Shown here piece after piece: positions 27,277-45,376 of a stretch of DNA of 64,000 nucleotides (its first letter is position 1; each line of letters starts with the position of its first letter). A model generated the notes under the pieces. The model was not told the DNA's origin and made no database searches. It saw only the letters and a list, made by a program, of their open reading frames with translations. Position numbers and translations under genes: made by a program. Source of the stretch: an uncultured Gemmatimonadota bacterium (GTDB taxonomy: Bacteria; JAAXHH01); contig OX638340.1 in NCBI GenBank assembly GCA_951812955.1, forward strand, positions 2,240,001-2,304,000. The letters are read 5' to 3'.

Positions 27277-27424
27277 CGTCTTCTCCGCCCTGCTCGTCAA
27301 CGACGACTCCATATGTAGGTGGCATGATCGGCATTCCTGCCGCCATGCTCTTCAACCCCGACTCCTAAGGTAGGTGGCCGTGTCCATCATATCCTCCGCT
27401 ATGCTCGTCAACCCCGATGGAGAC
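27277..27424. repeat. Three imperfect tandem copies (about 56 bp each) of the NUDIX gene 5' end
   Basis: ccgccctgctcgtcaacgacgactccatatgtaggtggc, ccgccatgctcttcaaccccgactcctaaggtaggtggcc and ccgctatgctcgtcaaccccgatggagac. The first two copies end in in-frame stop codons. Confidence 0.7.
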
Positions 27425-27799
27425 ATCCTCGTCAACCTCCGCGACGACGACCCCCGGATCATCTTCCCGAATCTGTGGAGCCTCATCGGGGGCCACGTGG
27501 AAGCGGGAGAATCGCCCGAAGAAGGCCTGGTCAGAGAGGTGCTGGAGGAGATCGGCTACCGGTTGACCGAGTACCACGCCCTGGCGACCTTCTTCGACGG
27601 GGAAGACGTGCGTCACCTCTATCTCTCCCCGATCGACGTCCCGATCGAAGATCTCGTACTGGGCGAAGGCCAGGCCATCCGGTTCATCGATCCCAGGCGG
27701 GCGCTCGCCGAACTCGACCTGTGCGTCACCGGCCGGCGGTGCATCGAGGTCTACCTGCGCCACCTCGAATTCCAGGCGTACGTCCGCACGCGAAGCTGA
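27374..27799 (+). CDS. NUDIX hydrolase
   Basis: Nudix box GGHVEAGESPEEGLVREVLEEIGY. GTG start. Alternative ATG at MLVNPDGD. Confidence 0.8.
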   Translation: MAVSIISSAMLVNPDGDILVNLRDDDPRIIFPNLWSLIGGHVEAGESPEEGLVREVLEEIGYRLTEYHALATFFDGEDVRHLYLSPIDVPIEDLVLGEGQAIRFIDPRRALAELDLCVTGRRCIEVYLRHLEFQAYVRTRS

Positions 27800-27861
27800 G
27801 GGCGGCCCGCCAACCCGGATCCGCCAACACGGATCCCAGCAACCTCCCGAAAGACTTTCCC

Positions 27862-30800
27862 CTACGCTTTCTTCAACCCCCATGACCTGACCATGTAGTA
27901 GATGACCGGAATGACCACGAGGGTCAGTACCGTAGAAGTCACCATGCCGCCCACCATGGGCGCGGCGATGCGCTGCATGACCTCCGATCCCGTGCCGGTT
28001 CCCCACATGATGGGCGTCAACCCGGCCATGGTGGCGGCGACCGTCATCATCTTGGGGCGCACGCGCTCCACGGCCCCGTGCATGACGACCTCGTAGAGAT
28101 CCTGACGTGTGTTCAGCGCGTCACGGTCTACCCGTTCCTGGTAGGCCTGTTTCAGATAGAGCAGCATGACGACCCCCGTTTCCGCCGCCACGCCGGCCAG
28201 CGCGATGAACCCGACGCCCACCGCGATGCTGAAATCGTAGTCCATCAGATACATCAGCCACACGCCGCCCACGAGCGCGAAGGGCAGCGATAGCATGACG
28301 ATCATACTGTCCGTGACGTTGCGAAAGTTCATGTATAGCAGCAGGAGAATGATGGCCAGGGTGACGGGCACGACGACCTGCAGACGGCGCTGCGCCCGCT
28401 CCATGTACTCGTACTGCCCGCTCCAGACCATGCTGTATCCCACGGGCAGGGAAACCCGTTCCGCGATGTGCTGTCGGGCGGTTTCCACGTAGGCGCCGAT
28501 GTCCGTGTCCTTCAGATCCACGTATACCCAGGCCGTGGGCCGGGCGTTCTCCGACTTGATGCCGGCGGGTCCTTTCCGAAATCGGATTTCTGCCACCTGG
28601 CTGATGGGGATCTGCGCCCCCGAGGGCGTAGGAATCAGGATGCGCCTGAGGTCCGATACGTCGTCGCGCAGCTCCCGGGCATAGCGGATGTTCACCGGGT
28701 AGCGCTCGAGTCCCTCGACCGTGTGAGTCACGTCCACGCCGCCCACCGCTGACATGATGACATCCTGCACGTCGCCCACGGTCATCCCGTAGCGTGCCGC
28801 CTCGACGCGGTCGATCTCGAAGTCGAGGTAGTTCCCGCCAAGTGTCTTCTCCGGGAAGACGCTGAGCGTGCCCGGCAGTTCACTGAGTTCTACCGCGACC
28901 TGCTCTGCCAGATCCGACAGCTCGGCCAGATCGTTCCCCATCAGCTTGACGCCCACCGGGGTCCGGATGCCCGTGGACAGCATGTCGATCCGGGTGCGGA
29001 TGGGCATGGTCCAGGCGTTGGTCAGACCCGGAAACTGGATCGCGTTGTTGAGGGCTTCTACGAGTCCTTCGCGGGTCATGCCCGGCCGCCATTCTTCCTC
29101 GGGCTTTAACATGATGGTGGTCTCGATCATGGACAGCGGCGCAGGGTCGGTCGCCGTGTCAGCCCGTCCCACCTTGCCGAATACCCGTTCCACTTCCGGG
29201 AAGGAACTTATGATCTTATCGGTCTGCTGCAGGAGCTGTCGGGCCTTGGTAATCGATATGCCTGGATCCGTGGTGGGCATGTAGAGCAGGTCGCCCTCGT
29301 AGAGCGGCGGCATGAACTCGGACCCGATCCGCTGCAGCGGATACCACGTGGCCGAGAGGACGACCACCGCGACGGCGATGGTCAGCCACCTCAGGCGGAT
29401 CGCCGACCGGATCACGGGCCGGTACAGGAACACGAGCAGCCGGCTGAGCGGATTCCTGCGTTCCGGCAGCAGACGTCCCCGGACCAGGTAGCCGATCAGT
29501 ACGGGTACGAACGTAATCGCCAGCAGGGCGGCCGCTGCCATGGTGTACGTCTTGGTATAGGCCAGGGGCTTGAAGAGCCGGCCCTCCTGGGCCTGCAGGG
29601 CGAAGATTGGCGCGAAAGACAGCGTGATGATGAGCAGGGAGTAGAAGAGGGACGGTCCCACTTCCTTCGTGGCGTCGAGGACGATCTGCCAGTGGTCCTT
29701 CTTCCCGCGGTCCCGCTCCATGTGCTTGTGCGTGTTTTCGATCATGACGATGGCGGCGTCCACCAGCGTGCCGATGGCAATGGCGATCCCGCCGAGGGAC
29801 ATGATATTGGCGTTGATCCCCTGCCAGGACATGACCAGGAAGGCGGCGAGCACGCTGATCGGAAGGGTGAGGATGACCACCAGGGCCGATCGGAAGTGGA
29901 TCAGGAAGATGATGCAGACCAGGGCGACGATGAGGCTTTCTTCCAGAAGCTTGTTGCTCAGGTTGTCGATGGCCCGTTCGATCAGGTTCGACCGGTCGTA
30001 GGCCGTGATGATCTCCACGCCCTCCGGAAGGCCCGATTTGAGCGACTCCAGCTTCTCCTCCACGTCCCGGATGACCTCCATGGCGTTCTCGCCGTACCGC
30101 ATGACGATGATGCCGCCGACGATCTCCCCCTCGCCGTTCCATTCCGCCAGCCCGCGCCGCAGTTCCGGTCCGGTCGTTACCCGCGCTACCTGGTGCAGCA
30201 AGACGGGCGTGCCGAAATCGTCTACACCAAGGGTGACGTTCTCCAGGTCCTCGACGGACTTGATGTACCCCAGTCCTCGGACCATGTATTCTGTTTCCGC
30301 CATTTCCACGACCCGGCCGCCCACGTCGTTGTTGCTCCGCTGGATCGCCGTCTTGATCCGGTTGAGCGGAATGCCGAAGATCAGCAGCTTGTTGGGGTCG
30401 ACCTCCACCTGGTACTGCTTCACGAACCCGCCGATGCTGGCGACCTCGGAAACGCCATGAACAGAAGTCAGTTCGTATCGCAGGAACCAGTCCTGGATGC
30501 TACGGAGTTCCGCCAGGTTGTGCCGGTCGCTCCTCAGCACGTATTCGTAGACCCATCCCACGCCCGTGGCGTCCGGTCCCAGGCTCGGATTCACGCCTGG
30601 CGGCAATCGGTCGGTCACGTAGCTCAGGTACTCCAGCACGCGGCTACGGGCCCAGTAGATGTCCGTGCCGTCCTCGAAGATGATATACACGAAACTGAGC
30701 CCGAAGAAACTGTAACCCCGAACCGTCTGCGCATGGGGCACCGCGAGCATGGCCGTCGTCAGCGGGTAGGTCACCTGGTCCTCCACCACCTGCGGCGCCT

Positions 30801-30966
30801 GGCCGGGATATTCGGTCAGGACGATCACCTGCACGTCCGAGAGATCCGGGATGGCGTCCAGGGGGATCTCCACCAGGGCCACGGTTCCCCCCGCGATCAA
30901 CAGCAAGGTGACCAGGATCACGAGGAACCGGTTCTTGACAGAGTATTCGATTATGCGTTGTAACAT
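27862..30966 (-). CDS. cusA: Heavy-metal efflux RND transporter, CusA/CzcA family
   Basis: 1034 aa, 12-TM RND architecture. N-terminus RFLVILVTLLLIAGGTVALVEIPLDAIPDLSDVQVIV is typical of the HME-RND family. Confidence 0.9.
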   Translation of the reverse strand: MLQRIIEYSVKNRFLVILVTLLLIAGGTVALVEIPLDAIPDLSDVQVIVLTEYPGQAPQVVEDQVTYPLTTAMLAVPHAQTVRGYSFFGLSFVYIIFEDGTDIYWARSRVLEYLSYVTDRLPPGVNPSLGPDATGVGWVYEYVLRSDRHNLAELRSIQDWFLRYELTSVHGVSEVASIGGFVKQYQVEVDPNKLLIFGIPLNRIKTAIQRSNNDVGGRVVEMAETEYMVRGLGYIKSVEDLENVTLGVDDFGTPVLLHQVARVTTGPELRRGLAEWNGEGEIVGGIIVMRYGENAMEVIRDVEEKLESLKSGLPEGVEIITAYDRSNLIERAIDNLSNKLLEESLIVALVCIIFLIHFRSALVVILTLPISVLAAFLVMSWQGINANIMSLGGIAIAIGTLVDAAIVMIENTHKHMERDRGKKDHWQIVLDATKEVGPSLFYSLLIITLSFAPIFALQAQEGRLFKPLAYTKTYTMAAAALLAITFVPVLIGYLVRGRLLPERRNPLSRLLVFLYRPVIRSAIRLRWLTIAVAVVVLSATWYPLQRIGSEFMPPLYEGDLLYMPTTDPGISITKARQLLQQTDKIISSFPEVERVFGKVGRADTATDPAPLSMIETTIMLKPEEEWRPGMTREGLVEALNNAIQFPGLTNAWTMPIRTRIDMLSTGIRTPVGVKLMGNDLAELSDLAEQVAVELSELPGTLSVFPEKTLGGNYLDFEIDRVEAARYGMTVGDVQDVIMSAVGGVDVTHTVEGLERYPVNIRYARELRDDVSDLRRILIPTPSGAQIPISQVAEIRFRKGPAGIKSENARPTAWVYVDLKDTDIGAYVETARQHIAERVSLPVGYSMVWSGQYEYMERAQRRLQVVVPVTLAIILLLLYMNFRNVTDSMIVMLSLPFALVGGVWLMYLMDYDFSIAVGVGFIALAGVAAETGVVMLLYLKQAYQERVDRDALNTRQDLYEVVMHGAVERVRPKMMTVAATMAGLTPIMWGTGTGSEVMQRIAAPMVGGMVTSTVLTLVVIPVIYYMVRSWGLKKA

Positions 30967-31006
30967 GATGAGCCCCTTTAAGTTCCGGACGGTCCAGGCG
31001 GACCGG

Positions 31007-32362
31007 TCAATGCATCATCCGGTGGTCGAGCATTTTCTGGATCGCCTCCTGGAGCCGGCTTTCCGAATCGATCAGGAACTGGGCGGAGGTCACGACCCGT
31101 TCGCCCGCGCTGACGCCGCGCATCGCCTCCACGTAACCTTCCCGACCCTCCATGCCGAGGGTAACTTCGCGGGGCTCGAACTTCCCGCCATCGAGGGCGA
31201 CGAAGACCACGTTGCGCTCGCCGCTGTGGATGACCGCGCTGCCCGGGATAACCAGCAGGGGCCGCTCGCTGCGCGCGGAAAGGCGGATATTGGCGTACAT
31301 CTGGGGTTTCAGTTCGAGATCCCGGTTGGGGAACACCAGACGGATCTTGATGTCACGCGACGCGCGGTCCAGGTAGGGATAGATGTAATCGATCGTGCCG
31401 CGATAGACCTTCCCCGGGTTGTAGGGCAGTTCCATCTCGGCCGTCAGTCCCGGATTCAACCACGGGGCGTCCCCGTCGTATACGTGGGCGAAGGCCCAGA
31501 TGCTCGAAAGATCGGCCATACGGTACATGTCCATGCCTGGCGTGACCCGCATGCCCAGTTCGGCCATCCGCTCCACGACGATGCCCGTTGAAGGCGCATA
31601 GATGGTCAGGGTCCGGGCGATCGTGCCCCTTTCCTCCAGCTCCTGGATCTGCGCCTCGGTCACGTCCCAGTAGAGCAGGCGGCGCCGCGAGGCATCCAGC
31701 AGCGACTCCGCGCCTTTCGTGATGGTCTCAAACGTGCTGTTTTCGAGATTTTCAACGTTCTGGAACGCCAGGAGGTATTCTTCCTGCGCCGCGACGAGTT
31801 CCGGCGAGTAGATGGCCAGCATCGGATCGCCCGCGGCGACCCGCTGACCCGTCTCGTTCACGTAGAGCTTTTCGATCCACCCGGGATACTTGACGTTGAT
31901 CCGGGAATACATTTCCTCGTTGTAGTCCAGGTGGCCGACGGTCCGTATGGATCGGGTCAGCGGACGTTCCTGGACGGCCGCGGTTTGGACGCCGATGTTC
32001 TGTATCGTGGCCGGATCGATCACGATGGTAGCGCCGGGGGAGGGCGCCGCGTCCTCGGCCTGTTCGTCCATAGCCTGTTCGGCCACGGCCTGCTCTTCCG
32101 CTTCGGCCGTGTTTTTCATCGGCGTAAGATTCATCCCGCAGATCGGACACTGGCCCGGTTCTTCCGTAATTACGTTCGGATGCATACCGCACGTCCACAA
32201 CTGAACCTGCGCCGTATCACCGCTATCGGAAGTGGTCGTCGACTCCGGATCGCCACAGCCCGTTAACAGCACCAGCGGCGCGGCGGCCAGCAGCATGACG
32301 GCCAGCAACCTGGAGGCCAGTGACCGGAATGCACGCCCGCGTAGTCTCTTGACGATGTTCAT
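31007..32362 (-). CDS. cusB: RND efflux membrane-fusion (periplasmic adaptor) protein, CusB-like, with an N-terminal heavy-metal-binding Cys motif
   Basis: WTCGMHPNVITEEPGQCPICGMNL matches the metal-binding domain found in CusB-like adaptors. Position is between the OMF and RND genes. Confidence 0.8.
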   Translation of the reverse strand: MNIVKRLRGRAFRSLASRLLAVMLLAAAPLVLLTGCGDPESTTTSDSGDTAQVQLWTCGMHPNVITEEPGQCPICGMNLTPMKNTAEAEEQAVAEQAMDEQAEDAAPSPGATIVIDPATIQNIGVQTAAVQERPLTRSIRTVGHLDYNEEMYSRINVKYPGWIEKLYVNETGQRVAAGDPMLAIYSPELVAAQEEYLLAFQNVENLENSTFETITKGAESLLDASRRRLLYWDVTEAQIQELEERGTIARTLTIYAPSTGIVVERMAELGMRVTPGMDMYRMADLSSIWAFAHVYDGDAPWLNPGLTAEMELPYNPGKVYRGTIDYIYPYLDRASRDIKIRLVFPNRDLELKPQMYANIRLSARSERPLLVIPGSAVIHSGERNVVFVALDGGKFEPREVTLGMEGREGYVEAMRGVSAGERVVTSAQFLIDSESRLQEAIQKMLDHRMMH

Positions 32363-32378
32363 GATTTACCTCCTGTGT

Positions 32379-33647
32379 CTACGGGAGCGATCCCCCGGCG
32401 GCCCGTTCCAGCCGGCTGAGATACTTTCGGTAGTTGGCCGTTTCGGCCACGTACCCGAGCCGGGTACGCAGCACCATGCGTTCCGCGTCGAGCAGGTCGA
32501 GGAAGTCCATCTGCCCCGACTGGAAAGCGGCCAGTGTCGCCAGCACGCTGTTTTCCGCCTGGGTGATGAGGCCTTGCTCATAGACGTCGAGAGCCCGTCC
32601 GGAATGACGCAGGCGCCCGTATGCCTCCGCGACCTCCGCCGCGACGGTGTCCCGGATGCTCCGCCTGGCATATTGGCTTTCTTCCACGCGTGCCATGGCC
32701 TCCTGCACCCCGGCCCGCGTGCGTTTCCTGAACAGGGGCAGATTCACGCTCAACATGACGCCGAAGGCGTCTTTCCCGGCGTCGGATGCCGGGTTCCCTT
32801 CGAGCTTCGGAACGGTGATATAAGAAGCCTGCACCATGAAATCCGGCCGGTTGCCGAGGCGCGCGAGCCGGAGACCCAGTTCGTTTTGCCGGATCCGTGC
32901 GTCGACCGCCTCCAGTTCCTGCCGGACGGCCAGTGCTTTCTCAACCACCAGGGATTCGGGCTGTGTGTATCTCGTGGTATCAATGGCCGCAACCCGGTCG
33001 ACAGGCGTATCGGACGGACGGCTCAGCGCGCCGTTGAGGCGGGCAACGTGGGCGCTCCGCTCACCTTCCAGCGTAATGCGCTGTTTCAGTATCTCCGAAG
33101 CTTCCACGTGCGACTTGAGTACGTCTGCCTGGGAACCGCTCCCGGTGGCGTACTTCTCCTCCGCGGCGCCGGTGAAGGTCTCCAGCAGGACGAGATAGTC
33201 TTCAAGGATGCGCAGGGACCGGTCTACCCGGAAGAGATCATAGTAGACCGACTTCACTTCGTAGGTGATATCGCGCGCAATCGATTGGATCCCGGCCGTT
33301 TCGACCGCTGTTTCTTCCCCGGATATGTCGCCGCGCAGGCTCAGCTTGCCCGGATATGGAATCTGCTGTCCGAAGGCCAGCACGTTCCTCTGCGGTCCGA
33401 CACGCGTTTCCGGAGAGGATAGCCAACGCGTGTACATTAATACCGGATCCGAGTAGGAAGCGACCTGCGGCCGTCGTTGCGTGACCGCGGTCCGACGGTG
33501 ACGCGCTGCCTGCAGGACGGGGTTGCGGTCCAGGGCCTCGGCGACCAGCGCCTCGAGTCGCGGCGTCTGCGCCCGGGCCGGCAGAACGGCGAAAACGAGG
33601 GCGAAAGACATGATCAGAAAACCCGCGTATCGTGAAAAAACGGACAT
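32379..33647 (-). CDS. cusC: TolC-family outer-membrane efflux protein (CusC-like)
   Basis: Signal peptide, 422 aa, coiled-coil/alpha-barrel repeat pattern. First gene of the C-B-A operon on the minus strand. Confidence 0.8.
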   Translation of the reverse strand: MSVFSRYAGFLIMSFALVFAVLPARAQTPRLEALVAEALDRNPVLQAARHRRTAVTQRRPQVASYSDPVLMYTRWLSSPETRVGPQRNVLAFGQQIPYPGKLSLRGDISGEETAVETAGIQSIARDITYEVKSVYYDLFRVDRSLRILEDYLVLLETFTGAAEEKYATGSGSQADVLKSHVEASEILKQRITLEGERSAHVARLNGALSRPSDTPVDRVAAIDTTRYTQPESLVVEKALAVRQELEAVDARIRQNELGLRLARLGNRPDFMVQASYITVPKLEGNPASDAGKDAFGVMLSVNLPLFRKRTRAGVQEAMARVEESQYARRSIRDTVAAEVAEAYGRLRHSGRALDVYEQGLITQAENSVLATLAAFQSGQMDFLDLLDAERMVLRTRLGYVAETANYRKYLSRLERAAGGSLP

Positions 33648-33893
33648 GGCCTGTTCCTCGGGTTGATATGAATTGATCGTTACAGTTGAATACGGCCTGG
33701 AGAGCGGATGTGGCGGTCCCTTGCGGGATGGCGCTTCGCATCATCGGCGCGCAGTATCGTTAGGCGTTACGCATCGTCCCGGGACGCGCAGGCTGCCGGA
33801 CGGACAAAACCTGGAAGTCCGGATACACGATGCCTTCTACGCGTCGCGTGTTACGCTCACGGCCCGTTGGTGCCCAGTGTTTTCAGGTGGGTA

Positions 33894-34331
33894 TTAGATG
33901 AGGTACGTGCAGAAGAGTGCGCGCAATGGGGGTGGGGACCGGTCGGTATTCGATTCCGGAGAAATCCGTGAGACATGGACCGCCGGTTCAACCAGGTGTA
34001 ACCCCCGCAGCGGCGTCGATAGGACCAGCTGATCGGGTTGAACGGAAGCGGCTGGAAGCAGCGCACCCACCCCGGATTGCCGGTATGGCGCCGGATCGAC
34101 GCTGCAGCAGGACATGGCCAGCGTGCCCGTCGCGCATGTTTCCGTCGCGTGGCCCGTGGCGCATGTTTCCGGAGTCTTGGCCGTCGAGCAACAAGCGTGC
34201 TCGCTCCCGGACGAAGATGCGTCCGGCGACGAAGACTTTGCCATCATGCACACGCCGTCCGCTGCCGTGCCCGCCAGGGACGGAGACGACAAGGAGAGGA
34301 AAAGGATGAGAACGGTGAATCGCCTGATCAT
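33894..34331 (-). CDS. Small secreted Cys/His/Met-rich hypothetical protein upstream of cusCBA, candidate periplasmic metal-binding protein. The C-terminal half may be read-through.
   Basis: Signal peptide MIRRFTVLILFLSLSSPSLAG, then HACCSTAKTPETCATGHATETCATG (ETCATG repeated). Same strand and immediately upstream of cusC. Confidence 0.35.
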   Translation of the reverse strand: MIRRFTVLILFLSLSSPSLAGTAADGVCMMAKSSSPDASSSGSEHACCSTAKTPETCATGHATETCATGTLAMSCCSVDPAPYRQSGVGALLPAASVQPDQLVLSTPLRGLHLVEPAVHVSRISPESNTDRSPPPLRALFCTYLI

Positions 34332-34478
34332 GACCGGATCTCCGGGGAATCAACCTGGCTCGATATATAACAATCTACCCGCATACCGGGAGAAACACAA
34401 TCGAATTCGGGACACCCGCGACGCCTGCCGCGTCGGACCGCACTCCGCCCTGGCCTACCAGTCCGTATCGGATCCGCG

Positions 34479-34703
34479 CTATTTTCCCCGCCTTCGCTGG
34501 CGCCTGACGAGCTTTACTACTTCCTTCACCGAGAGGTTCGTCTTGACCGTTGGTATATCCAGCGGAGACGCTGGAGGCAGTTCGGGGACGACGGCATATC
34601 TCCTGCCATCCTTTCTGCGTATGATTACTTTTCCGGTCGATTCCGCTTCGTCGAGCAAACTCGACAGATGCTGCCTCGCTTCAGTATAGGTATAGACGTC
34701 CAT
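34479..34703 (-). CDS. Phd/YefM-family type II antitoxin
   Basis: MDVYTYTEARQHLSSLLDEAESTGKVIIRRKDGRRYAVVP matches the Phd/YefM consensus. Start moved to the ATG at 34703. Confidence 0.65.
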   Translation of the reverse strand: MDVYTYTEARQHLSSLLDEAESTGKVIIRRKDGRRYAVVPELPPASPLDIPTVKTNLSVKEVVKLVRRQRRRGK

Positions 34704-34710
34704 GACGCAG

Positions 34711-35118
34711 TCACTCCCCTTGAAATTCCAGACGCACAACGTCAATGCCAAGCGACTCCGCGGCGCGGGCCAATGACCGGTCCAGGGTCAGCAGAGGCGC
34801 ATTGTACCTGATGGCGGTCTCCAGAAAAAAAGCGTCGGCCGCCACTCCCTTCATTCGAGACGCGATCGAAAGGATCTGGGCCATGTCCACGTCCACGTAA
34901 CGTAGCGGGATGTTGCCCAGGATCTCCATGCCTCTGCGCGCCTCCTCGGCGTCGATCCCTTTCTGCCGGATCATGACGGAGAAGGCATGGCAAATCTCCC
35001 ATCGAACGAAATCCGGCGCGATGAGGACGTGACCCGAAGCCGCTTCGGCCAGGGCACCGCGTTCCGGACCCTGCATTACGGATGCAATAATCGCCGATGT
35101 ATCGATGACCATATTCAC
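34711..35118 (-). CDS. vapC: PIN-domain toxin (VapC-like)
   Basis: MNMVIDTSAIIA..., 135 aa. The acidic residues needed for a PIN active site are present. Confidence 0.7.
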   Translation of the reverse strand: MNMVIDTSAIIASVMQGPERGALAEAASGHVLIAPDFVRWEICHAFSVMIRQKGIDAEEARRGMEILGNIPLRYVDVDMAQILSIASRMKGVAADAFFLETAIRYNAPLLTLDRSLARAAESLGIDVVRLEFQGE

Positions 35119-36169: not shown

Positions 36170-36405
36170 TCCGACCCGCCCCTACATCCGACCCGCCCTT
36201 ACCACCGACCCGCCCACACCCCCGGCCCAACCGGGAGAGTACAGATTCCTACCATATCCTTGGCCATCCGGCACTGCTCGGCTGGCCGTCCATTTCCGCC
36301 GCCGAGACGGCTGTCCGCTTTCGCCCCAGTCGGCCGTCCATTTCCGCCGCCGAGACGGCTGTCCGCTTTCGCTCCAGTCGGCCGTCCGCTTTCGCCCCAG
36401 TCGGA
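36170..36405. repeat. Intergenic direct repeats: ccgacccgccc x3 (14-bp period) followed by 48-bp unit ggccgtccatttccgccgccgagacggctgtccgctttcgccccagtc x2 plus a partial third copy
   Basis: Read from the sequence between the two marR paralogs. Confidence 0.85.
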
Positions 36406-36441
36406 TCGCGGAACGGCACGCCTGCGGCAATAAAGTTTAAT

Positions 36442-36698: not shown

Positions 36699-37181
36699 AT
36701 GAACGTGGAGAACGAATTCAGGCAGGACATCTCGAACCGCTACTTGAAGTCCGTGGAAGAAATCAACCGGATCATGTACAGCGGCCGTCTGCATGAGTGG
36801 CAGGGGATGGATCTATCGATTTCCCAGTTCAATACCCTTGTCATGCTGAAGCAGATGGGACCGATGCGCATGGGTATGATTTCCTACTATCTGAAGAACA
36901 CGCTTGCCGCCACCACATCGATCGTAGACCGTCTGGAGAACAAGGACCTGGTGATTCGGACCAAGGATCCCGAAGACAGAAGAGTGGTCATCTGCGAATT
37001 GACGGAACACGGGCAGAAAGCAACGGAGCGATTCTGGCGAGTCGCGCGGGAGGCGGCCTTGAGGGTAGCCAGCAAGTGGGACCTGAAGCAGTTCGAATCA
37101 GTGGTCGAGGCGCTGGAACTGGTCTTGCAGACCCATAAGGAGATCGTTCAGTCCGGCACATCTACAAAGCCTGCCGAATAA
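36699..37181 (+). CDS. MarR-family transcriptional regulator (paralog of 35491-36003)
   Basis: QFNTLVMLKQMGPMRMGMISYYL...DPEDRRVVICELTEHGQ. Clear paralogy with the upstream MarR. Confidence 0.8.
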   Translation: MNVENEFRQDISNRYLKSVEEINRIMYSGRLHEWQGMDLSISQFNTLVMLKQMGPMRMGMISYYLKNTLAATTSIVDRLENKDLVIRTKDPEDRRVVICELTEHGQKATERFWRVAREAALRVASKWDLKQFESVVEALELVLQTHKEIVQSGTSTKPAE

Positions 37182-37223
37182 CCCACGCAACAATCTACTA
37201 AGCCTGCCAAATAACCACTGACA

Positions 37224-38195
37224 TCAAGATGAAGAAGAACAGGTAAGCATGAAGTGCCGCGCAGCGCCGATGATGCCGGCGTCGTCGCCGAGTTTGGCAG
37301 GCACGATCCGCAGTATGCCGGCCGACCACTTGTAGGCCCGCCGCGCCACCTCGGCGCCGATGGGATTGAAGATTAGATCGCCCGCCTTAATCACGCCGCC
37401 TCCAATAACGATCAATTCGGGATTCAGCAGGTTGGTGAGGCTGGAAACGGCCGTACCGAGCAGCGTGGCGGACCGGTGCATCACTTCCCGCGCCGTATCG
37501 TCGCCCTGGCCGGCGGCCTCGGCGACCATGGCCGCATCGATTCGGTCCAGGTTGCCCCCGCTCATTTCCCTTAATACGCTCTTCCGGCGACCGTGCACCA
37601 GTTCCCGCGCCTGTTCGGCGATGGCCGTCGCCGAAGCATAGGCTTCCAGGCATCCCGGCGCGCCGCAGCCACACATCCTGCCGTTCTCCACGACGGTCAT
37701 ATGGCCGATCTCGCCGCCCGCGCCGTTGGAGCCGCGCCAGACTTCGTTGTTCATGATGATCGCGCCGCCCACGCCCGTCCCCAGGGTAATACATATGACG
37801 TTCGCCTTGCCGGCGGCGGCGCCTACCCAGTGCTCCCCGATGGCCGCGGCGTTGGCGTCGTTCTCGATCGTCACCGGCAGTCCCAGGCGTTCACGGAGGA
37901 TCGACTGGAGCGGAAGATCCACCCATTCCGGCACGTTCGGCGCGTATACCACGATCCCTGAATCCTCCGGAATCAACCCGGGCGTACCCACGCCCACGCC
38001 GGCCACGCGGCCCCTTCCGCAGGAGTCCATGGTCATCTCGACGCAGGTCACCAGCCGGTCGATCACCTCGCCGGCGGTGCGGCTGCCCGATATGGATTGC
38101 CAGGCCCTGTGGGATATGCGGCCGCCGTCGTCCACTACGGCGCTGTTGACATTGGTCCCCCCCAGGTCCACGCCTATGACCAGGTCTCGCTTCAT
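37224..38195 (-). CDS. glk: ROK-family glucokinase
   Basis: MKRDLVIGVDLGGTNVNSAVV (ATP-binding DxGGT) and the ROK zinc motif GHMTVVENGRMCGCGAPGCLE. The upstream 485 codons of the 808-aa ORF in the track are an Arg/Gly-rich read-through and are excluded. Confidence 0.85.
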   Translation of the reverse strand: MKRDLVIGVDLGGTNVNSAVVDDGGRISHRAWQSISGSRTAGEVIDRLVTCVEMTMDSCGRGRVAGVGVGTPGLIPEDSGIVVYAPNVPEWVDLPLQSILRERLGLPVTIENDANAAAIGEHWVGAAAGKANVICITLGTGVGGAIIMNNEVWRGSNGAGGEIGHMTVVENGRMCGCGAPGCLEAYASATAIAEQARELVHGRRKSVLREMSGGNLDRIDAAMVAEAAGQGDDTAREVMHRSATLLGTAVSSLTNLLNPELIVIGGGVIKAGDLIFNPIGAEVARRAYKWSAGILRIVPAKLGDDAGIIGAARHFMLTCSSSS

Positions 38196-39754
38196 GCCCG
38201 TTCCCTGCTTCCGGCCAGGTCCACGCCCGACATCGGCTCCGGAGCGGGTATGCCTATCATGGACAGCACGGTCGGCGCCACGTCCGCCAGCCGGCCACCG
38301 TCGCGAAGACGCGCGTTTCTCCCGGAATCGTCGACAAGGATGAGCGGCACGGGATTCGTAGTGTGTGCGGTATGGGGCGTGGAGGTGACGGGATCCACCA
38401 TCATCTCCGCGTTGCCGTGGTCCGCCGTGACGATCGCCCCGCCGCCGGCCGACCCGACCGCGTCCATTACCTCTCCCAGGCACCGGTCGACCGTCTCCAC
38501 GGCCGCAACCGCCGCGGGGAGCGAACCCGTATGGCCCACCATGTCCGGATTGGCGAAATTCACCAGCACGAAATCGTATTCCCCGCCGCGAAGGGCGCCG
38601 GCCACGCGGGATGCGACCTCGGGCGCGCTCATTTCGGGCTTCTCGTCGTAGGTGGCCACGTCCCGCGGAGAGGGGACCATTAACCGGTCCTCGCCGTCGA
38701 AAGGCCGCTCGTCGCCTCCGTTGAAGAAATAGGTGACGTGGGGGTATTTCTCCGTTTCCGCCACGCGCAGTTGCCTCCGTCCGGCACGGCTGATCGTTTC
38801 CCCCAGAATACAGGCCATGGGCTCGGGTGGACGGAAGGCGCAAGGCACATCGAAACGTGCATCGTAGGGCGTCATGGTGGCGACGCGTACGTCCGGCACG
38901 GTTCCGCGGCAGAAACCGTCGAAGTCCTCCTCGATGAAGGTCCGGACGATCTGGCGTCCTCGGTCCGCCCGGTAATTGAAGACGATCACCGCGTCGCCAT
39001 CCGCCATCGTCCCGGCGGGGCCGTCCCGCGTCGCCCCGATCACGGTGGGCGATACGAATTCGTCGGTTTCGCCCCGGTCGTAAGCCGCCTGGATCGCCTC
39101 CGCCGCGGAACCGGCCCGGTTCCCCTTTCCCGCGGTGAAGAGATCGTAGGCCCTGCGCACCCGATCCCACCGGTTGTCCCGGTCCATGGCGTAGAAACGT
39201 CCGGTCACGGTGGCGATGCGGCCCGTACCGAGCCGTTCGATAGTCTCCTGCAGCGTCCGCAGATAGGCCGGCGCGCTTCGGGGCGCCGTATCGCGGCCGT
39301 CCACGACTGCGTGCACCAGGACGCGGTCTCCTGTGAATCCCTGGCGGGAGGCCAGTTCCAGTAGCGTCAGGTAGTGTTTTTCGGCGCTGTGGACCAGTCC
39401 GTTCGATGTGAGTCCCAGCAGGTGCAGCCTGCCGCCCGTTCCACGGAGCCGTTCCAGGATTGCGGCAAACGCCGCGTTCTCGAAGAACCTGCCGTCGTCG
39501 ATGGCCTCGTTGATCCGGGTGACTTCCTGCCGCACCACCCGCCCGGCGCCCAGGTTGAGGTGGCCGACTTCCGAGTTGCCCATGATACCGGGAGGAAGAC
39601 CCACGTCTACACCCGATGCACTCAGCATGGTGTGAGGATACCGTTGCCACAGCCTGTCGAAGTTCGGCGTCTCCGCCAGCAAAACGGCGTTGGCGTCGCC
39701 GCGGGGGGCGATGCCCCAGCCGTCCAGGATGACAAGCGCGACGGGAGGATTCAT
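38192..39754 (-). CDS. gpmI: 2,3-bisphosphoglycerate-independent phosphoglycerate mutase
   Basis: MNPPVALVILDGWGIAPRGDANAV...MGNSEVGHLNLGAGR. The 3' end overlaps the glk start by 4 nt. Confidence 0.9.
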   Translation of the reverse strand: MNPPVALVILDGWGIAPRGDANAVLLAETPNFDRLWQRYPHTMLSASGVDVGLPPGIMGNSEVGHLNLGAGRVVRQEVTRINEAIDDGRFFENAAFAAILERLRGTGGRLHLLGLTSNGLVHSAEKHYLTLLELASRQGFTGDRVLVHAVVDGRDTAPRSAPAYLRTLQETIERLGTGRIATVTGRFYAMDRDNRWDRVRRAYDLFTAGKGNRAGSAAEAIQAAYDRGETDEFVSPTVIGATRDGPAGTMADGDAVIVFNYRADRGRQIVRTFIEEDFDGFCRGTVPDVRVATMTPYDARFDVPCAFRPPEPMACILGETISRAGRRQLRVAETEKYPHVTYFFNGGDERPFDGEDRLMVPSPRDVATYDEKPEMSAPEVASRVAGALRGGEYDFVLVNFANPDMVGHTGSLPAAVAAVETVDRCLGEVMDAVGSAGGGAIVTADHGNAEMMVDPVTSTPHTAHTTNPVPLILVDDSGRNARLRDGGRLADVAPTVLSMIGIPAPEPMSGVDLAGSRERA

Positions 39755-39888
39755 ATGGAAGTACGTACTCCGGACGTATCGATTCGGGTACCCATTACCC
39801 TTCTGGCGAAGGGCCAATTATGAAGAAAACGCGGAAGTCACTCCGCGTTTTCTGATGTGTCGATCGATATTCCGTAGATCAATTTGTG

Positions 39889-41370
39889 TTATTCTTCGGG
39901 GATCCGCAGGCCGATAAGAAACTGCGCATTGCCCCGCTGTATCCTGAATCGGATGGCCTGGCCGGGTTCGAATTCTCGGACGATGCCTAGGAATTCCTGT
40001 ACGCTGGACACCGACTCGCCGTTCACCTCGCGGATCAGGTCGCCCCGTTGCAGTCTCTTGTCCTCGGCCACGCTGCCCGCGCGAACCTGGGTGATCACCA
40101 CGCCCGAACCCGCCTCGTAGAAACGAGACCACTCCCGCGTCACATCCATGACGTCGATGCCGAGGTTGGTCGCGGGGCTCCTTCTGGGTTCGCTCGTCGA
40201 CGCGACGCGGGTCGGATCTCCATCGGGTAACTCGCCAAGTTCCAGCGCGATCGTCACCGGCGATCCTTCCCGTACGACCTCGATCTCAATTTCCGTCCCC
40301 GGAGCGATATCCGCGATCCGTTTCCGCAGGTCGTCCACGTCTTCCACGTCTTCCCCGTCGACCGCGACGATGACATCCTCCACCTGGAGATCGGAGTCGA
40401 TCGCCGGTCCGTCATCCACGATGTTGCTTATGAGCGCTCCCGCCTTGCTGTCCAGGCCCATGGATTCGGCCACGATCTCATCCAAATCTGCGATTTCCAC
40501 CCCCAGGTACCCGCGGCTCACGCGTCCGTCCTCGACCAGCCGGGTCATGATGTCCCGGGCCATGTTGGCCGGAACCGCGAAGCCGACGCCCTGGTACCCG
40601 CCGGTCCGGGTGGAAATGGCGGTGTTGATGCCCATGAGGTTCCCTTCCAGGTCGACCAGCGCGCCTCCGCTGTTCCCCGGATTGATGGCGGCGTCCGTCT
40701 GGATGAAGTTCTCGTAAGAGTTCGGTTCCAGTACGCGTCCCCGGCCCTTGGCGCTGACGATGCCCGCCGTGACGGTATGGTTCAGTCCGAAGGGATTGCC
40801 CACGGCCAGCACCCACTCGCCGACCCTCAACTTGTCCGAATCGCCAAAGGCCAACACGGGAAGATTATCGAAATCGATCTTGATGACGGCAAGATCTGTA
40901 CGGGGATCCAGTCCGACGATCTCCGCCTCCGTCTCCCGTTCGTCCGACAATTGAACGGTCAGTTTCTCCGCGTTTTCCACCACGTGGTTGTTCGTCACGA
41001 TGTAGCCGTCTTTCGACACGATCACCCCGGACCCCAGACCCTGGAACGGCCGCGGCCGTTGATTTCCCGGCGGTCCGCCGCCGAAAAACTCTTCGAAGGG
41101 ATTCCTGAACCGCTGCTGCGTCTGCGCGACCGCGCGTTTGCTCGTGATGAGTACAACGGAAGGCTTGACCCGCTCCGCGATGGTGGCGAAGGTCTCGCTG
41201 AATTCCTGCATCGACCGCTGGTCAGCGGCGACGACCGGTGTTATCGACCTGTTCTCGTCCTGTTCGACAATGGAGGCGTCCCAGTTGGAAATGAACAGGC
41301 CGCCGAGTACCATGCCCGTGATGAGCAGCGCCGCGCCGGCGAAGCCTCCTATATTCCTTTTCTCCGTCAT
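39889..41370 (-). CDS. HtrA/DegP-family periplasmic serine protease with two PDZ domains
   Basis: Signal/TM anchor, trypsin-like core GSGVIVSKDGYIVTNNHVV...GNSGGALVD, and two PDZ-like C-terminal segments. Confidence 0.9.
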   Translation of the reverse strand: MTEKRNIGGFAGAALLITGMVLGGLFISNWDASIVEQDENRSITPVVAADQRSMQEFSETFATIAERVKPSVVLITSKRAVAQTQQRFRNPFEEFFGGGPPGNQRPRPFQGLGSGVIVSKDGYIVTNNHVVENAEKLTVQLSDERETEAEIVGLDPRTDLAVIKIDFDNLPVLAFGDSDKLRVGEWVLAVGNPFGLNHTVTAGIVSAKGRGRVLEPNSYENFIQTDAAINPGNSGGALVDLEGNLMGINTAISTRTGGYQGVGFAVPANMARDIMTRLVEDGRVSRGYLGVEIADLDEIVAESMGLDSKAGALISNIVDDGPAIDSDLQVEDVIVAVDGEDVEDVDDLRKRIADIAPGTEIEIEVVREGSPVTIALELGELPDGDPTRVASTSEPRRSPATNLGIDVMDVTREWSRFYEAGSGVVITQVRAGSVAEDKRLQRGDLIREVNGESVSSVQEFLGIVREFEPGQAIRFRIQRGNAQFLIGLRIPEE

Positions 41371-41542
41371 GCTCGATCTCCCTTTCTATGCTGTTTTTGC
41401 CCTGCCATTTACAACTATGCATAATACCGGGCACGCGTCCCGGCGTCAAACGATTACGGTCTATCTGCGACTGCCTCTTCCCCTTCCCATCCGGTTTCGC
41501 CAAGCGTCAGTCCGCCGGCCACACCCCGCGCTTCGAGCAATT

Positions 41543-41636
41543 CCTGCCTCAGTTCAGATTCGCGTCCCGGGTCGAAACGGTCACGCCGTCCTGCCTCAGT
41601 TCAGATTCGCGTCCCGGGTCGAAACGGTCACGCCGC
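41543..41636. repeat. 47-bp perfect tandem duplication (x2) covering the last 13 codons, stop codon and 6 nt of 3' flank of lon
   Basis: cctgcctcagttcagattcgcgtcccgggtcgaaacggtcacgccg occurs twice back-to-back. Copy 2 contains the lon stop (TGA on the minus strand at 41596-41598). Confidence 0.85.
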
Positions 41637-44049
41637 CTTGCATGGACTCCACCCAGGTCCCGTCGCTTTCCGGGGTGTCGGCGGGTTCATCCATGAGCGC
41701 CAGTTCCAGGACCTGGTCGATATGGTCGACCAGGCAGAACCCGAGCTTCTCCTTAACGGCCGCGGGGACGTCGTCCAGGTCTTTCTCGTTCCGGCGGGGC
41801 AGGATGATGGTGGTGATACCGGCCCGCATCGCGCCGAGGACCTTCTCCTTGACGCCGCCGACCGGCATGACCTTCCCGCGCAGAGTGACCTCGCCGGTCA
41901 TGGCCAGATCGTTTCGTACCGGCCGGCCCGTGAGCAGGGAGGTCAGCACCGTCACGAGCGCCACGCCGGCGGACGGACCGTCCTTGGGGATAGCACCCAC
42001 GGGCAGATGGATATGTATGTCGTGCCGACCGAAGAACGCCGGGTCGATCTGCCATTCCTCGGCGTGCGACCTGACGTAGGTCATTGCGGCCCGGGCGGAT
42101 TCCTTCATCACGTCGCCCAGTTGGCCCGTAAGCGTCAGCCCCTTTCTGCCGGGCATCTTGCTGGCTTCGACAAACATGATCTCGCCGCCGGCCGGGGTCC
42201 AGGCCAGCCCGATCGCCACGCCGGGGTCTCCGGTGCGTTCCGCGGTCTCGGAGAAGTACTCGGGCGGACCCAGGTGCCGGTGCAGGTCACCTTCGGAAAT
42301 CTGGAAGGGTGGAGCCTGCCCTTCGGCGACCGAACGGGCCGATTTGCGGGCGACTGTGCGGATCTTCCGCTCCAGGTTGCGCAGGCCCGCCTCCCGGGTA
42401 TAATCGGAGATGATCCGGGCGATCGCCCGGTCGTCAAGACGCAGGTCATCCGTGGACAACCCGTGCGACTCCAGTTCCCTGGGAACGAGGTAGCGCCGCG
42501 CGATTTCGACCTTCTCCTCTTCCGTGTATCCCGACAGCTCGATGATCTCCATGCGGTCGCGCAGCGGCTCCGGTATGCCGGCCAGCATATTGGCAGTGGT
42601 CACGAACATGACGTTGGACAGGTCGAAGGGCAGATCGATGTAGTGATCGGTAAAGGTGTCGTTCTGTTCCGGGTCGAGCACTTCGAGCAGCGCGGAGGAG
42701 GGGTCTCCCCGGAAATCCCGGCCGAGCTTGTCGATCTCGTCCAGCATGAAGACCGGGTTGTTGGTGCCCGCCTTGCGGATGCTCTGGATGATGCGTCCCG
42801 GCAACGCGCCGATGTAGGTCCTGCGGTGTCCCCTGATCTCAGCCTCGTCATGCACACCGCCCAGCGATATGCGCACGAACCGTCGGCCCAGGGCGCGGGC
42901 GATCGACTTGCCGAGCGAGGTCTTGCCCACCCCCGGCGGACCCGCGAAACACAGGATGGAACCCTTCAGGTCCGGCTTCAGGCTCCGCACGGCCAGGTGT
43001 TCGAGGACGCGGTCCTTGATCTTCTCGAGGCCGTAGTGGTCTTCGTCCAGGATTTCCCGGGCCCGCTCGATGTCCAACTGATCATCCGATGAAACGGACC
43101 AGGGCAGCTCCGACAGCCACTCGAGATAGGTCCGCAGTGTCGAATACTCCGGAGAGACGGTCGGAATGCGCTCCAACCTTTTGAGTTCGCGCTCCGCTTC
43201 CGCCCGGGCCTCGCCAGGCAGGCCGGCTTCCTCGATCTTCTCGCGCAGGTCGGACAGGTCCTCGCCCTGTCCTTCGCCGTCTTCTCCGAGCTCCCGTTGT
43301 ATGGCCTTCATCTGCTCGCGGAGATAGTACTCGCGCTGTGCCTTGCCCATCTTGTCCTCGACCTGCGACTGGATGCGGCTGCCCGTCTCCGCCACTTCGA
43401 TCTCCCGGGTTATCAGGAATGTCAGCGCCTTCAGCCTTCCCTTGACATCGCTCAATTCCAGCATGGCCTGCTGGTCTTCGAGGGAAATCTTCAGATTGAA
43501 GGCGATGAAATCGGCCATTTTGGATGGCTGGTCCTCCAGGTTGAGCAGGGGGATGCGCAGCTCTTCGGACATGGTCGGGACCAGTTCGATCAGCCGCTGG
43601 AACTGCTCCGCCAGGTTGTGGGCCAGTGCCTTGCCTTCCATGGACTCATGTTTCTGCTCAGCCTGGAGTTCCACCCGGACGCGCATGATCGGCTCGGTTT
43701 CGAGCACGTCCAGTACACGTGCGCGGGCCACCCCGTGGACCACCGCGTGGAGGCTGTCTTCCGGCAGCTTCATCATCTTGTATATCCGAACCAGCGTACC
43801 GAATTTGTAGAGATCTTCGGGCGACGGCTGGTCCGTGTCCGGGTCCCGCTGCGCCAGGACCATGACCATCTTGTCCTGTTGTAGCGCCTCGTCCAGCGCC
43901 TTGACAGAACCCGTCCGGTCGGCTACCAGCGCGGCCGCCATATGGGGATACACGATCAGGTTGCGCACCGGCAGCACGGCGATGGACTCGATTACCGAGT
44001 TCTCCTGCAGGTTCAACGGTACTTCCTGGAGCGCCTTGATTTCAGCCAT
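41596..44049 (-). CDS. lon: ATP-dependent Lon protease
   Basis: 817 aa with the Lon N-domain, AAA+ Walker A GPPGVGKTSLGKSIA, and the protease domain with catalytic Ser in PKDGPSAGVALVT. Confidence 0.95.
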   Translation of the reverse strand: MAEIKALQEVPLNLQENSVIESIAVLPVRNLIVYPHMAAALVADRTGSVKALDEALQQDKMVMVLAQRDPDTDQPSPEDLYKFGTLVRIYKMMKLPEDSLHAVVHGVARARVLDVLETEPIMRVRVELQAEQKHESMEGKALAHNLAEQFQRLIELVPTMSEELRIPLLNLEDQPSKMADFIAFNLKISLEDQQAMLELSDVKGRLKALTFLITREIEVAETGSRIQSQVEDKMGKAQREYYLREQMKAIQRELGEDGEGQGEDLSDLREKIEEAGLPGEARAEAERELKRLERIPTVSPEYSTLRTYLEWLSELPWSVSSDDQLDIERAREILDEDHYGLEKIKDRVLEHLAVRSLKPDLKGSILCFAGPPGVGKTSLGKSIARALGRRFVRISLGGVHDEAEIRGHRRTYIGALPGRIIQSIRKAGTNNPVFMLDEIDKLGRDFRGDPSSALLEVLDPEQNDTFTDHYIDLPFDLSNVMFVTTANMLAGIPEPLRDRMEIIELSGYTEEEKVEIARRYLVPRELESHGLSTDDLRLDDRAIARIISDYTREAGLRNLERKIRTVARKSARSVAEGQAPPFQISEGDLHRHLGPPEYFSETAERTGDPGVAIGLAWTPAGGEIMFVEASKMPGRKGLTLTGQLGDVMKESARAAMTYVRSHAEEWQIDPAFFGRHDIHIHLPVGAIPKDGPSAGVALVTVLTSLLTGRPVRNDLAMTGEVTLRGKVMPVGGVKEKVLGAMRAGITTIILPRRNEKDLDDVPAAVKEKLGFCLVDHIDQVLELALMDEPADTPESDGTWVESMQGGVTVSTRDANLN

Positions 44050-44830
44050 GTCTTACCTCGCTTTCCCTGCCCTTGTGCCGCGTCCTCGGGCGTCCTCAAG
44101 AGGTGGCCGTCGCGAGACTCGGTTAGCCCTCGACCGTCAGTGAACGTCGCCGGGCCTGTTTCCATTCGCATGGCCATGGGAAGCGCCTCGCGGCTGCTTG
44201 ATTCATTATACGCACCAACCGGCCAATACGCTTCATTTGGCCTGGATTTCTACCGTACTACAGCAACATAGGGTGCAAACTCCATGCCACGATGATTCCG
44301 TGTCGACGACTTGATGATTCCGTGCCTCCTTCACGATGCTTCTGGGCCGACGGCATGGTAAATTCGCGCCACGCCAGGATTCTATTCGCGTATATGTGCC
44401 AATTTGGCATATCAGGTCGCACAAACTGCCATTTTAGCATGTGGCTTACTACAGAATCTCACACTATTTGGTCGGCAACTTCATCCCTCCGCTCGAATCC
44501 GTGTATGCCACGGCCTTCGCATAGCTATTCCGAACCGCGCCGGAGGTTTTTCTGCCCAGACCGTACTGCGCCTGTGTGATCTGCTGTCCGGACCGCGCTG
44601 CGCCAGTGTAATTTGCTACCCGGACTGCGATACGCCTTGTGTGTTCTACTTCCATCGAAACAGGTTGACAATTCGACGGTTCGGGTTACCATGTCGAGAA
44701 ATGATCGGCCTGCGTGTCCGTACTTAAACAGAGCGGTCTGTTCAGCCTGTTCCGGGGCAATCACGCGCCTGTTTTCGACGGAAACAGCCGCGACATTTCT
44801 CTGTCTACTGTCTCCATACGAGGAATACCC

Positions 44831-45298
44831 ATGAAACGTCCTTTCATTCGGATCTTGACGACCACGCTGTCATGCTTTCTTATCGCGGGATTGGCCATGG
44901 CGGGTTGCGGCGGCGAAGGCGGCGGAAGCCAGGACCATGCCGAAGAACCGGCCGAAAGCGAGGCGCCCGACCCGAACACCGAGGCGCGCCAGGAGTACAT
45001 GAGAGAGATCGCGCAGCTCTGCGAAGGGATCGCCCTGGCGATCGAGGAAGGATCCGTGGGGACGATCGGCGCCGACGTGTCGAATCTCAAGGGGGTCATG
45101 GAGGAAGTGTCTACGATGCCTCCGCGATACGATTCTTCGAGATTCGGGTTCTACGCCTCCGACTTCCAGATACGCGCCGACACGCTCATCGCAGCTGCGG
45201 AGACCGGTTCGGCCATCGAGGCCGACTCCGCGATGCAAGCCCTCGCGATCACCTGCGGCGTTTGCCATTACAACTGCAAGTTCCCGGCCGATCCGTAA
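44831..45298 (+). CDS. Cytochrome c'-like (class II c-type cytochrome) lipoprotein
   Basis: Lipoprotein signal (FLIAGLAMAGC), about 135-aa helical mature part, single CxxCH heme motif (CGVCH) about 12 residues from the C-terminus, as in cytochrome c'. Confidence 0.5.
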   Translation: MKRPFIRILTTTLSCFLIAGLAMAGCGGEGGGSQDHAEEPAESEAPDPNTEARQEYMREIAQLCEGIALAIEEGSVGTIGADVSNLKGVMEEVSTMPPRYDSSRFGFYASDFQIRADTLIAAAETGSAIEADSAMQALAITCGVCHYNCKFPADP

Positions 45299-45370
45299 TT
45301 CGCGGTTAGTTCCCGGCCGACCCGTAAATATCCGGCAAGTTCCCGGCCGATCCGTAATTCCCGCCAAGGA
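45279..45370. repeat. Three tandem copies of about 30 bp (agttcccggccgatccgtaa...), the first containing the last 6 codons and stop of the cytochrome gene
   Basis: aagttcccggccgatccgtaattcgcggtt / agttcccggccgacccgtaaatatccggca / agttcccggccgatccgtaattcccgcc. Confidence 0.8.
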
Positions 45371-45376
45371 GGAACC

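Follow-up and report, generated by a model that had tools for sequence, protein, structure and literature searches.

Why should three genes in one stretch of bacterial DNA each carry tandem copies of their own terminal codons? The stretch, hereafter the window, is a 64 kb segment (contig OX638340.1, positions 2,240,001 to 2,304,000; assembly GCA_951812955.1) from an uncultured Gemmatimonadota bacterium, in which a preliminary description had reported short tandem repeats at the 3′ end of lon, at the 3′ end of a cytochrome gene and at the 5′ end of a NUDIX gene. A slippage-prone polymerase or repair background, template switching at terminators and an assembly artefact had been offered as causes. 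The reading that we consider probable is that the repeats are genuine, local short tandem duplications in a duplication-prone lineage and that they lie on gene ends mainly through tolerance.

The window alone was examined from this genome, and its repeats were compared with loci fetched from relatives (denoted by L numbers). The closest Lon proteins (87-95% identity) come from sponge-metagenome assemblies labelled Gemmatimonadetes or Candidatus Latescibacterota; an exact look-up of the window Lon protein gave no record. Gene order is kept in the fetched loci, around lon in L001-L006 and L092-L093 and around NUDIX in L085-L091. The nearest relatives are L092 and L093, with approximately 96-97% DNA identity over 10 kb. 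Tandem arrays were called with Tandem Repeats Finder (TRF) at one setting for all sequences, and those with a period of 14-150 bp and a score of at least 50 were counted.

Repeats at gene ends and their counterparts in relatives

All three repeats are present in the sequence, within 1-11 bases of where they had been placed, and their TRF scores of 124-188 place them above chance. The features are as follows.

41596-44049, minus strand: lon, 817 amino acids (aa), with the full Lon domain set from precomputed Pfam hits
41542-41635, minus strand: lon repeat as a whole, perfect 47 bp × 2
41589-41635, minus strand: gene copy of the lon repeat, with the final 12 codons (GVTVSTRDANLN), the TGA at 41596-41598 and 7 nt past the stop
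41542-41588, minus strand: second copy of the lon repeat, 100% identical, non-coding, adjoining the stop downstream
45296-45298, plus strand: stop TAA of the cytochrome c′-like gene (CxxCH motif at the C-terminus; weak match to Pfam Cytochrom_C_2)
45276-45363, plus strand: cytochrome 3′-end array, three copies with a period of 29-30 bp
45276-45304, 45305-45334 and 45335-45363, plus strand: cytochrome copies 1, 2 and 3, of which copy 1 carries the real stop
27380-27799, plus strand: NUDIX gene, 139 aa as in at least 30 relatives, start GTG at 27380
27266-27432, plus strand: NUDIX 5′-end array, three copies (A, B and C) with a period of 55-56 bp, copy C being the real start

The lon repeat, which had been described as a perfect 47 bp duplication at 41543-41636, lies at 41542-41635. 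Its periodic region is exactly 94 nt, or 2 × 47, with 0 bp of flanking microhomology. The htrA promoter (-35 at 41449, -10 at 41421), which the duplication left untouched, begins about 90 bp downstream of the second copy. The lon end is single-copy in L092, L093 and L002-L006. No match to the duplication junction was found in the Joint Genome Institute (JGI) metagenomes, where a search with the flanks gave one single-copy relative, L093. The remaining relative, L001, carries its own version of the lon end twice, as identical copies of 42-43 bp that stand 61 bp apart, and the left duplication boundaries in the window and in L001 are only about 4 nt apart; on this comparison the event in L001 is independent of that in the window. 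The window duplication, being absent from the closest relatives, would be very recent or, less likely, an artefact. A recent event is favoured by the identical lon-end copies that L001 has of its own, by perfect duplications of a like kind in L002, a 3.69-Mb single-contig relative (17051-17099), and by the variation of other arrays in copy number among close strains.

The spacer between lon and htrA (41371-41595 in the window) lengthens stepwise among L001-L006, L092 and L093. In L005 the lon stop overlaps the htrA -35 box, a distance of approximately 0 bp; stop and box are 11-13 bp apart in L003 and L006, approximately 55 bp apart in L002 and approximately 95 bp apart in both L092 and L093, and the distance rises to 142 bp in the window and approximately 165 bp in L001. 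No source was found in any compared locus for an 85-bp insert of the window clade or for the 61-bp segment of L001 in this spacer. The htrA promoter region bears a 76% resemblance to the lon 3′ end and was considered as a possible older copy of it; this was dropped, the resemblance being at chance level, by our estimate, for a 10-nt seed within 400 bp. In L092 lon is called as two open reading frames (ORFs; 637 and 170 aa, at 3378-5830), which is probably a frameshift error of a short-read contig rather than a real pseudogene.

The cytochrome array has a longer history. Copies 2 and 3 repeat the last 20 nt of the gene plus its stop, beyond the real stop; copies 1 and 3 are 97% alike, while copy 2 is 76% identical to copy 1. 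Copy 3 adjoins the ribosome-binding site of a glyoxalase-family gene (45377-46360). The triple repeat is base-for-base the same in L092. In L001 the array is shortened to a period of 16-17 bp and has the same middle-copy variant (GACCCGT), which would fit later deletions between CCGGC repeats. The single-copy state is seen in L002, where the cytochrome stop lies directly on the glyoxalase ribosome-binding site and two GCAAG arms of 5 nt stand 29 nt apart; read from sequence, this arrangement is a signature of microhomology-mediated tandem duplication. Single-copy ancestral states among the relatives, this one for the cytochrome and those given above for lon, indicate that the copied sequence was of local origin.

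At the NUDIX gene the copies begin at approximately 27266, 27321 and 27377, with a core identity of 78-91%, and every copy contains a Shine-Dalgarno-like GGTAGGTGG, a start codon and about 13 codons. Copies A and B are short upstream ORFs, closed by the TAG at 27371-27373 and the TAA at 27366-27368, respectively. The triple repeat also occurs in L091 and L090, which derive from other samples and other assemblers, and two copies occur in L085; L087 has unrelated tandem repeats in the spacer upstream of NUDIX. In an alignment of the window with L091 the changes in the copy B peptide are mostly non-synonymous, and the peptide is therefore regarded as being without constraint. Duplicated ends of this kind can mislead start calling: NUDIX was called as 141 aa instead of 139 aa.

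The window holds at least two more duplications that span a stop codon, at a MacB/FtsX permease gene and at an AhpC/TSA gene, and about nine further arrays in spacers.

53256-55859, minus strand: MacB/FtsX permease gene, with its stop (53256-53258) inside the duplication
53223-53267, minus strand: MacB/FtsX stop duplication, 23 bp × 2, perfect except for the last base of the second copy
22642-23208, plus strand: AhpC/TSA gene, stop TAG at 23206-23208
approximately 23191-23242, plus strand: AhpC stop duplication, approximately 25 bp × 2, with diverged copies

The AhpC repeat is kept in L085, with a mutated stop in its second copy. The same loci in relatives thus give a divided answer, with the cytochrome, NUDIX and AhpC repeats shared and the lon end single-copy. 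Because independently assembled relatives carry them too, these three shared repeats are inherited features, and their copies have diverged to 76-91%. The lon and MacB/FtsX repeats, with copies that are identical or nearly so, would be young.

Array density and placement at gene ends

Nineteen arrays with a period of 14-150 bp were counted in the window, a density of 2.97 per 10 kb compared with 0.67 in controls (77 loci, 1.27 Mb, from diverse bacteria). The densities in the relatives are 2.7 per 10 kb in L001, 3.6 in L003, 4.5 in L006, 1.8 in L002 and 0.9 in L005. Arrays with a period that is not a multiple of 3 were taken as being in practice non-coding, and for these the comparison was also made with GC-matched controls. 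The window has eight such arrays versus 1.6 expected (P = 3e-4), and the lineage has 1.3 per 10 kb versus 0.20-0.25 in the controls, the GC-matched set included. The lineage thus has 4-6 times more tandem arrays (period of at least 14 bp) than the controls, and its non-coding DNA holds about five times more short tandem duplications than that of the other bacteria sampled.

Copy number differs between close strains, as illustrated by two groups of intergenic arrays.

36171-36404: pair of intergenic arrays, 17 bp × 3 at 36171-36228 and 48 bp × 2.5 at 36284-36404
44288-44625: arrays between lon and the cytochrome gene, 22 bp × 3 at 44288-44352 and 32 bp × 2.3 at 44552-44625

The 17-bp unit, CCGACCCGCCCTTACCA, is present in three copies in the window versus about six in L093 (7900-8270), and the 48-bp array differs as well; the 32-bp array has 2.3 copies in the window versus 2.8 in L092. 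Copy-number differences of this sort between strains that are 96-97% identical could serve as variable-number tandem repeat (VNTR) markers in sponge microbiomes. The arrays at 36171-36404 lie about 300-530 bp upstream of a MarR-family gene (36699-37181).

Repeats on gene ends recur in the relatives. In L006 a 62 bp × 1.9 array (7772-7890) lies across the stop of a glyoxalase-family gene, its unit consisting of 57 nt of C-terminal codons plus stop and 5 nt of filler. A 30 bp × 2.9 array in L085 (3351-3438) begins at the stop of a VTT-domain gene, and the perfect 23 bp × 2.1 repeat in L002 (17051-17099) includes the ribosome-binding site and ATG of a PIN-domain gene. The iPGM and ROK genes share an ATGA stop/start overlap in the window (approximately 38192-38195) and in L003. 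In L001 a 53-bp × 2.5 array (16201-16330), the unit of which is a 24-nt junction plus 29 nt of filler, takes the place of the overlap, and the two genes are about 100 bp apart. The earlier suggestion that the pattern recurs and reflects a systematic tendency is therefore upheld, both by the excess of arrays and by the additional terminus-spanning examples in the window and its relatives.

That gene ends are specifically copied is a different matter. Arrays inside confident genes of the window have periods of 15, 15, 27, 15, 15, 15 and 18 bp, all divisible by 3. Among the terminus-spanning and intergenic arrays of the lineage, 10 of 29 have a period divisible by 3, which is the one-in-three proportion expected without constraint; a further seven arrays, with periods not divisible by 3, had been scored as intragenic but fall within doubtful fallback ORFs. 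A frame filter thus operates on coding arrays, and a duplication across a start or stop is tolerated because one intact reading frame and its signals always remain. Under random placement on the gene map of the window, 13-40% of non-intragenic duplications span a start or stop, the proportion rising from 15 to 55 bp. Moreover, most genes here would originally have lain only 0-20 bp from the next gene or promoter, and nearly every tolerated duplication close to such a junction contains a gene end; in L005, L003 and L006, for example, the stop of lon adjoins the -35 box of htrA or overlaps it. The apparent targeting of gene ends is largely a selection effect, as judged by the frame filter and the null model. 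We conclude that the association with gene ends is mostly survivorship in a compact genome and not specific copying of termini.

Against the null model, 14 of 38 non-coding arrays (nine loci) span a terminus versus 8.1 expected (P ~0.016). This excess is overstated in two respects: three of the 14 are the same cytochrome array, counted in the window, L092 and L001, and present-day spacers are longer than the spacers that preceded duplication.

Proposed origin and competing explanations

The duplications (14-63 bp) would copy whatever sequence sat locally, through replication slippage, microhomology-mediated tandem duplication or an error of the end-joining or flap-ligation type. This uncultured sponge-metagenome lineage would make or keep them unusually often, and the arrays would then grow and shrink like VNTRs. 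A duplication inside a gene would survive only when in frame, while one spanning a start or stop would keep an intact gene. The extra copies would be non-coding by-products that lengthen spacers and incidentally part signals that once overlapped (stop, ribosome-binding site and promoter). We infer both the mechanism and the neutrality of the extra copies from the compared sequences. Of repair genes, only mutS was identified in the window; it is intact and has its five domains complete. As modelled, MutS has 913 aa, and the MutS proteins of relatives have 905-914 aa.

Several observations fit this account less well. Terminus-spanning arrays are about 1.7 times as frequent as under the simple null model, such that some site preference is possible, and the same lon end underwent separate duplications in the window and L001. 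No microhomology is present at the junction of the lon event, and three young arrays in relatives exceed two periods by just 1-3 nt (TRF coordinates), which is near chance; classical microhomology-mediated slippage cannot, on this count, explain all events. Finally, filler without detectable source lies between copies in L001 (61 nt at lon, 29 nt at iPGM/ROK) and L006 (5 nt at the glyoxalase-family gene), which suggests that another process took part or acted instead. The duplications probably arose by more than one route, and end joining and flap ligation are candidates.

Four known phenomena may be compared. Microhomology-mediated tandem duplication (PNAS 2021, PMC8639346; bioRxiv 10.64898/2026.02.28.708716) has been reported to be the chief origin of tandem duplications throughout life and to increase when Rad27/FEN1 is lost (bioRxiv 10.64898/2026.02.28.708716). 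The present loci resemble it in the head-to-tail copying of a single segment followed by expansion or collapse, as in the cytochrome arms, the shortening in L001 and the variation in copy number among strains, but differ in the lack of microhomology at lon, in the filler seen in relatives and in a density several times that of other sampled bacteria. Flap-endonuclease defects (yeast rad27/FEN1; the 5′ nuclease of Escherichia coli Pol I) are duplication mutators that produce many 5-100 bp tandem duplications genome-wide. By analogy, such a defect would yield a lineage-wide excess, although the duplications of these mutators are typically flanked by short direct repeats. A tandem duplication creates a single novel joint, and the genes at its ends each keep an intact copy, a rule set out in the reviews of Anderson and Roth; it explains why start- or stop-spanning events are tolerated and out-of-frame internal events are not, but was formulated for kilobases to megabases rather than for 14-63 bp.

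The fourth comparison is with the mycobacterial interspersed repetitive unit (MIRU) VNTRs, which likewise have 15-60 bp units in operon spacers with strain-variable copies and small unit ORFs that abut the start or stop of neighbouring genes, as the upstream NUDIX copies do. MIRUs, however, form a dispersed family of common sequence and are presumed to be mobile, whereas every unit here copies the local sequence and no family exists. Nothing specific was found in the literature on gene-terminus tandem duplications as a class in bacteria or on tandem repeats in Latescibacteria.

The repeats do not appear to act through RNA. Their folding z-scores, +0.1 to +1.2, are no better than those of shuffled sequence, no Rfam match was found in the whole window, and a terminator scan of 41300-45500 gave a single terminator-like site (44528-44545), which lies outside the lon and cytochrome repeats. 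RNA structure or a riboregulator is rejected on these results; the structured 3′ untranslated regions that had been envisaged for lon and the cytochrome gene are not supported, and neither is template switching at terminators. Neither a function nor a mobile element nor a new molecular system is indicated. The loci consist of head-to-tail copies of local sequence, differ in copy number between strains and keep in-frame periods in coding arrays; we class them as ordinary tandem-duplication (VNTR-type) loci in an unusually duplication-prone lineage. What is new here is the density of duplications, the microhomology-free and filler-containing events and the stepwise growth of spacers; the underlying logic is textbook genetics.

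A bolder version of this account, which we regard as rather doubtful, would see a distinctive mutational regime in which frequent duplications of 14-63 bp, often free of microhomology and some with filler, as end joining or flap ligation would give, favour gene junctions beyond chance, steadily loosening a compact genome and uncoupling stop, start and promoter signals. If true, the lineage would be a natural model for the birth of intergenic DNA, leaders and upstream ORFs in bacteria.

A process associated with breaks or nicks might instead be aimed at gene ends, for example through breaks linked to transcription termination or R-loops or through staggered nicks that are filled and end-joined, and give duplications without microhomology and sometimes with filler. 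It would account for the lon junction, for the repeat-spacer-repeat structures with filler in L001 and L006, for the independent hits on the lon end with nearly coincident left boundaries and for the 14 terminus-spanning arrays where 8.1 were expected. We nevertheless consider it unlikely. The excess is small and is inflated by the repeated counting of orthologous arrays and by longer modern spacers, and many arrays lie in spacers away from any terminus. The sole terminator-like site between 41300 and 45500 falls outside the repeats, none of which folds beyond shuffled sequence, and the cytochrome array fits ordinary microhomology arms.

The duplications could also be adaptive, either by parting overlapping signals (a stop from a ribosome-binding site or promoter, or an ATGA overlap) or by making upstream ORFs or leaders that tune the downstream gene. 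Tight junctions do occur in relatives, at the lon stop and htrA -35 box in L005, L003 and L006 and at the cytochrome stop and glyoxalase ribosome-binding site in L002, and the iPGM/ROK overlap of the window and L003 is split by the 53-bp array in L001. Furthermore, the upstream NUDIX copies retain a ribosome-binding site, a start codon and an in-frame stop beside the real start, and of the three cytochrome copies the second has drifted, whereas 1 and 3 stay nearly the same. Survivorship, however, predicts terminus-spanning events at tight junctions as well, the NUDIX copy B peptide shows no constraint between the window and L091, single copies suffice in close relatives and many arrays occur where no signals overlap. 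Adaptation seems, on balance, a still more questionable explanation.

An artefact of assembly or polishing, as had been allowed for at the outset, is improbable. The copies at lon and MacB/FtsX are identical or nearly so, and the lon repeat, whose junction does not occur in the JGI metagenomes, is missing from every relative examined, two of which are 96-97% identical. Three of the five start- or stop-spanning repeats (cytochrome, NUDIX and AhpC), however, recur in independent assemblies of other samples with diverged copies, which an assembler would not yield, and comparable perfect duplications occur in the 3.69-Mb single contig of L002. Moreover, typical reads or k-mers are longer than a structure of 94 bp, and tandem repeats are more apt to be collapsed by assemblers than created. 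The suspicion is thus removed for these three repeats, while the lon repeat is private to the window, being absent from L092, L093 and L002-L006. Duplicated gene ends in these metagenome-assembled genomes should accordingly be annotated as real features and not treated as errors for polishing.

Footprints of mobile elements or recombination are scarcely credible, whether as target-site duplications, attachment (att) site remnants, a family of MIRUs, repetitive extragenic palindromes (REPs) or miniature inverted-repeat transposable elements (MITEs), a diversity-generating retroelement (DGR) or stray integration of the CRISPR type: the 42-43 bp direct repeat at the lon end of L001 does flank a 61-bp unique spacer and MIRUs do sit at operon junctions with ORFs coupled to neighbouring genes (PMC12548453), but copies in the window abut, the units are locus-specific and mutually unlike and are no more stable in folding than shuffled sequence, no counterpart of the spacer and insert sequences was found in the compared loci, and the differences between the NUDIX copies are not adenine-specific. 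When units were compared with each other and with the whole window, no cross-locus matches beyond words of 7-9 nt were found, and no integrase, transposase, reverse transcriptase or cas domain was seen when 30 window proteins were searched against Pfam. A dispersed MIRU/REP/MITE family was rejected on the locus-specific units and their folding, no inverted-repeat scan having been run. An att-site duplication was rejected on the abutting copies and on the 61-bp spacer of L001, which has no coding capacity. The DGR reading was dismissed since copy differences involve all four bases, the lon copies are identical and the scanned proteins include no reverse transcriptase; a CRISPR-like array was rejected on anatomy.

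Local duplication retained where it is tolerated is therefore the reading that we prefer. For genome evolution its interest is that these relatives display the growth of spacers step by step through local duplication, by which overlapping genes become parted.

Other arrays and neighbouring genes

Four further arrays in the window lie close to genes.

53071-53180, minus strand: repeat in the spacer downstream of MacB/FtsX, three copies of a 22-35 bp unit, before the next gene
61576-61630, minus strand: 19 bp × 2.9 array at or just upstream of the start of a TPR gene (from 59030), the start codon of which is uncertain
27807-27836: 14 bp × 2.1 array, beginning 8 nt past the NUDIX stop
23267-23300: 15 bp × 2.3 array between the convergent AhpC and FMN-reductase genes

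In-frame repeats were noted in the C-terminal part of MutS (27 nt × 2.4, at 26938-27003) and near the N-terminus of a beta-lactamase-family protein (18 nt × 3.5, at 52100-52162), the latter encoding SAYAQG-like hexapeptides. The MacB/FtsX gene (53256-55859) is missing at the syntenic site in L002, where a 264-aa gene adjoins a GH106 gene, and may be a lineage-specific insertion.

A long tandem array with periods of 12 and 60 nt occupies 4415-5310 and has no Pfam match. Its potential product would be a (Gly-Asp)n protein of about 330 aa ending in poly-Asp on the minus strand or a (Ser-Pro)n protein on the plus strand, either strand being possible.

The region 11137-18787 has a low GC content (0.47-0.53). 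It encodes an AAA_5/nSTAND3 protein (13445-15622) followed by an McrBC-family protein (15622-16743) and, on the minus strand, two HNH_2 endonuclease-domain proteins (16835-17761 and 17771-18787). In L085 the PhyH gene and the 464-aa gene that flank this region are only about 1.2 kb apart, and the region therefore looks like an inserted defence island of about 8 kb.

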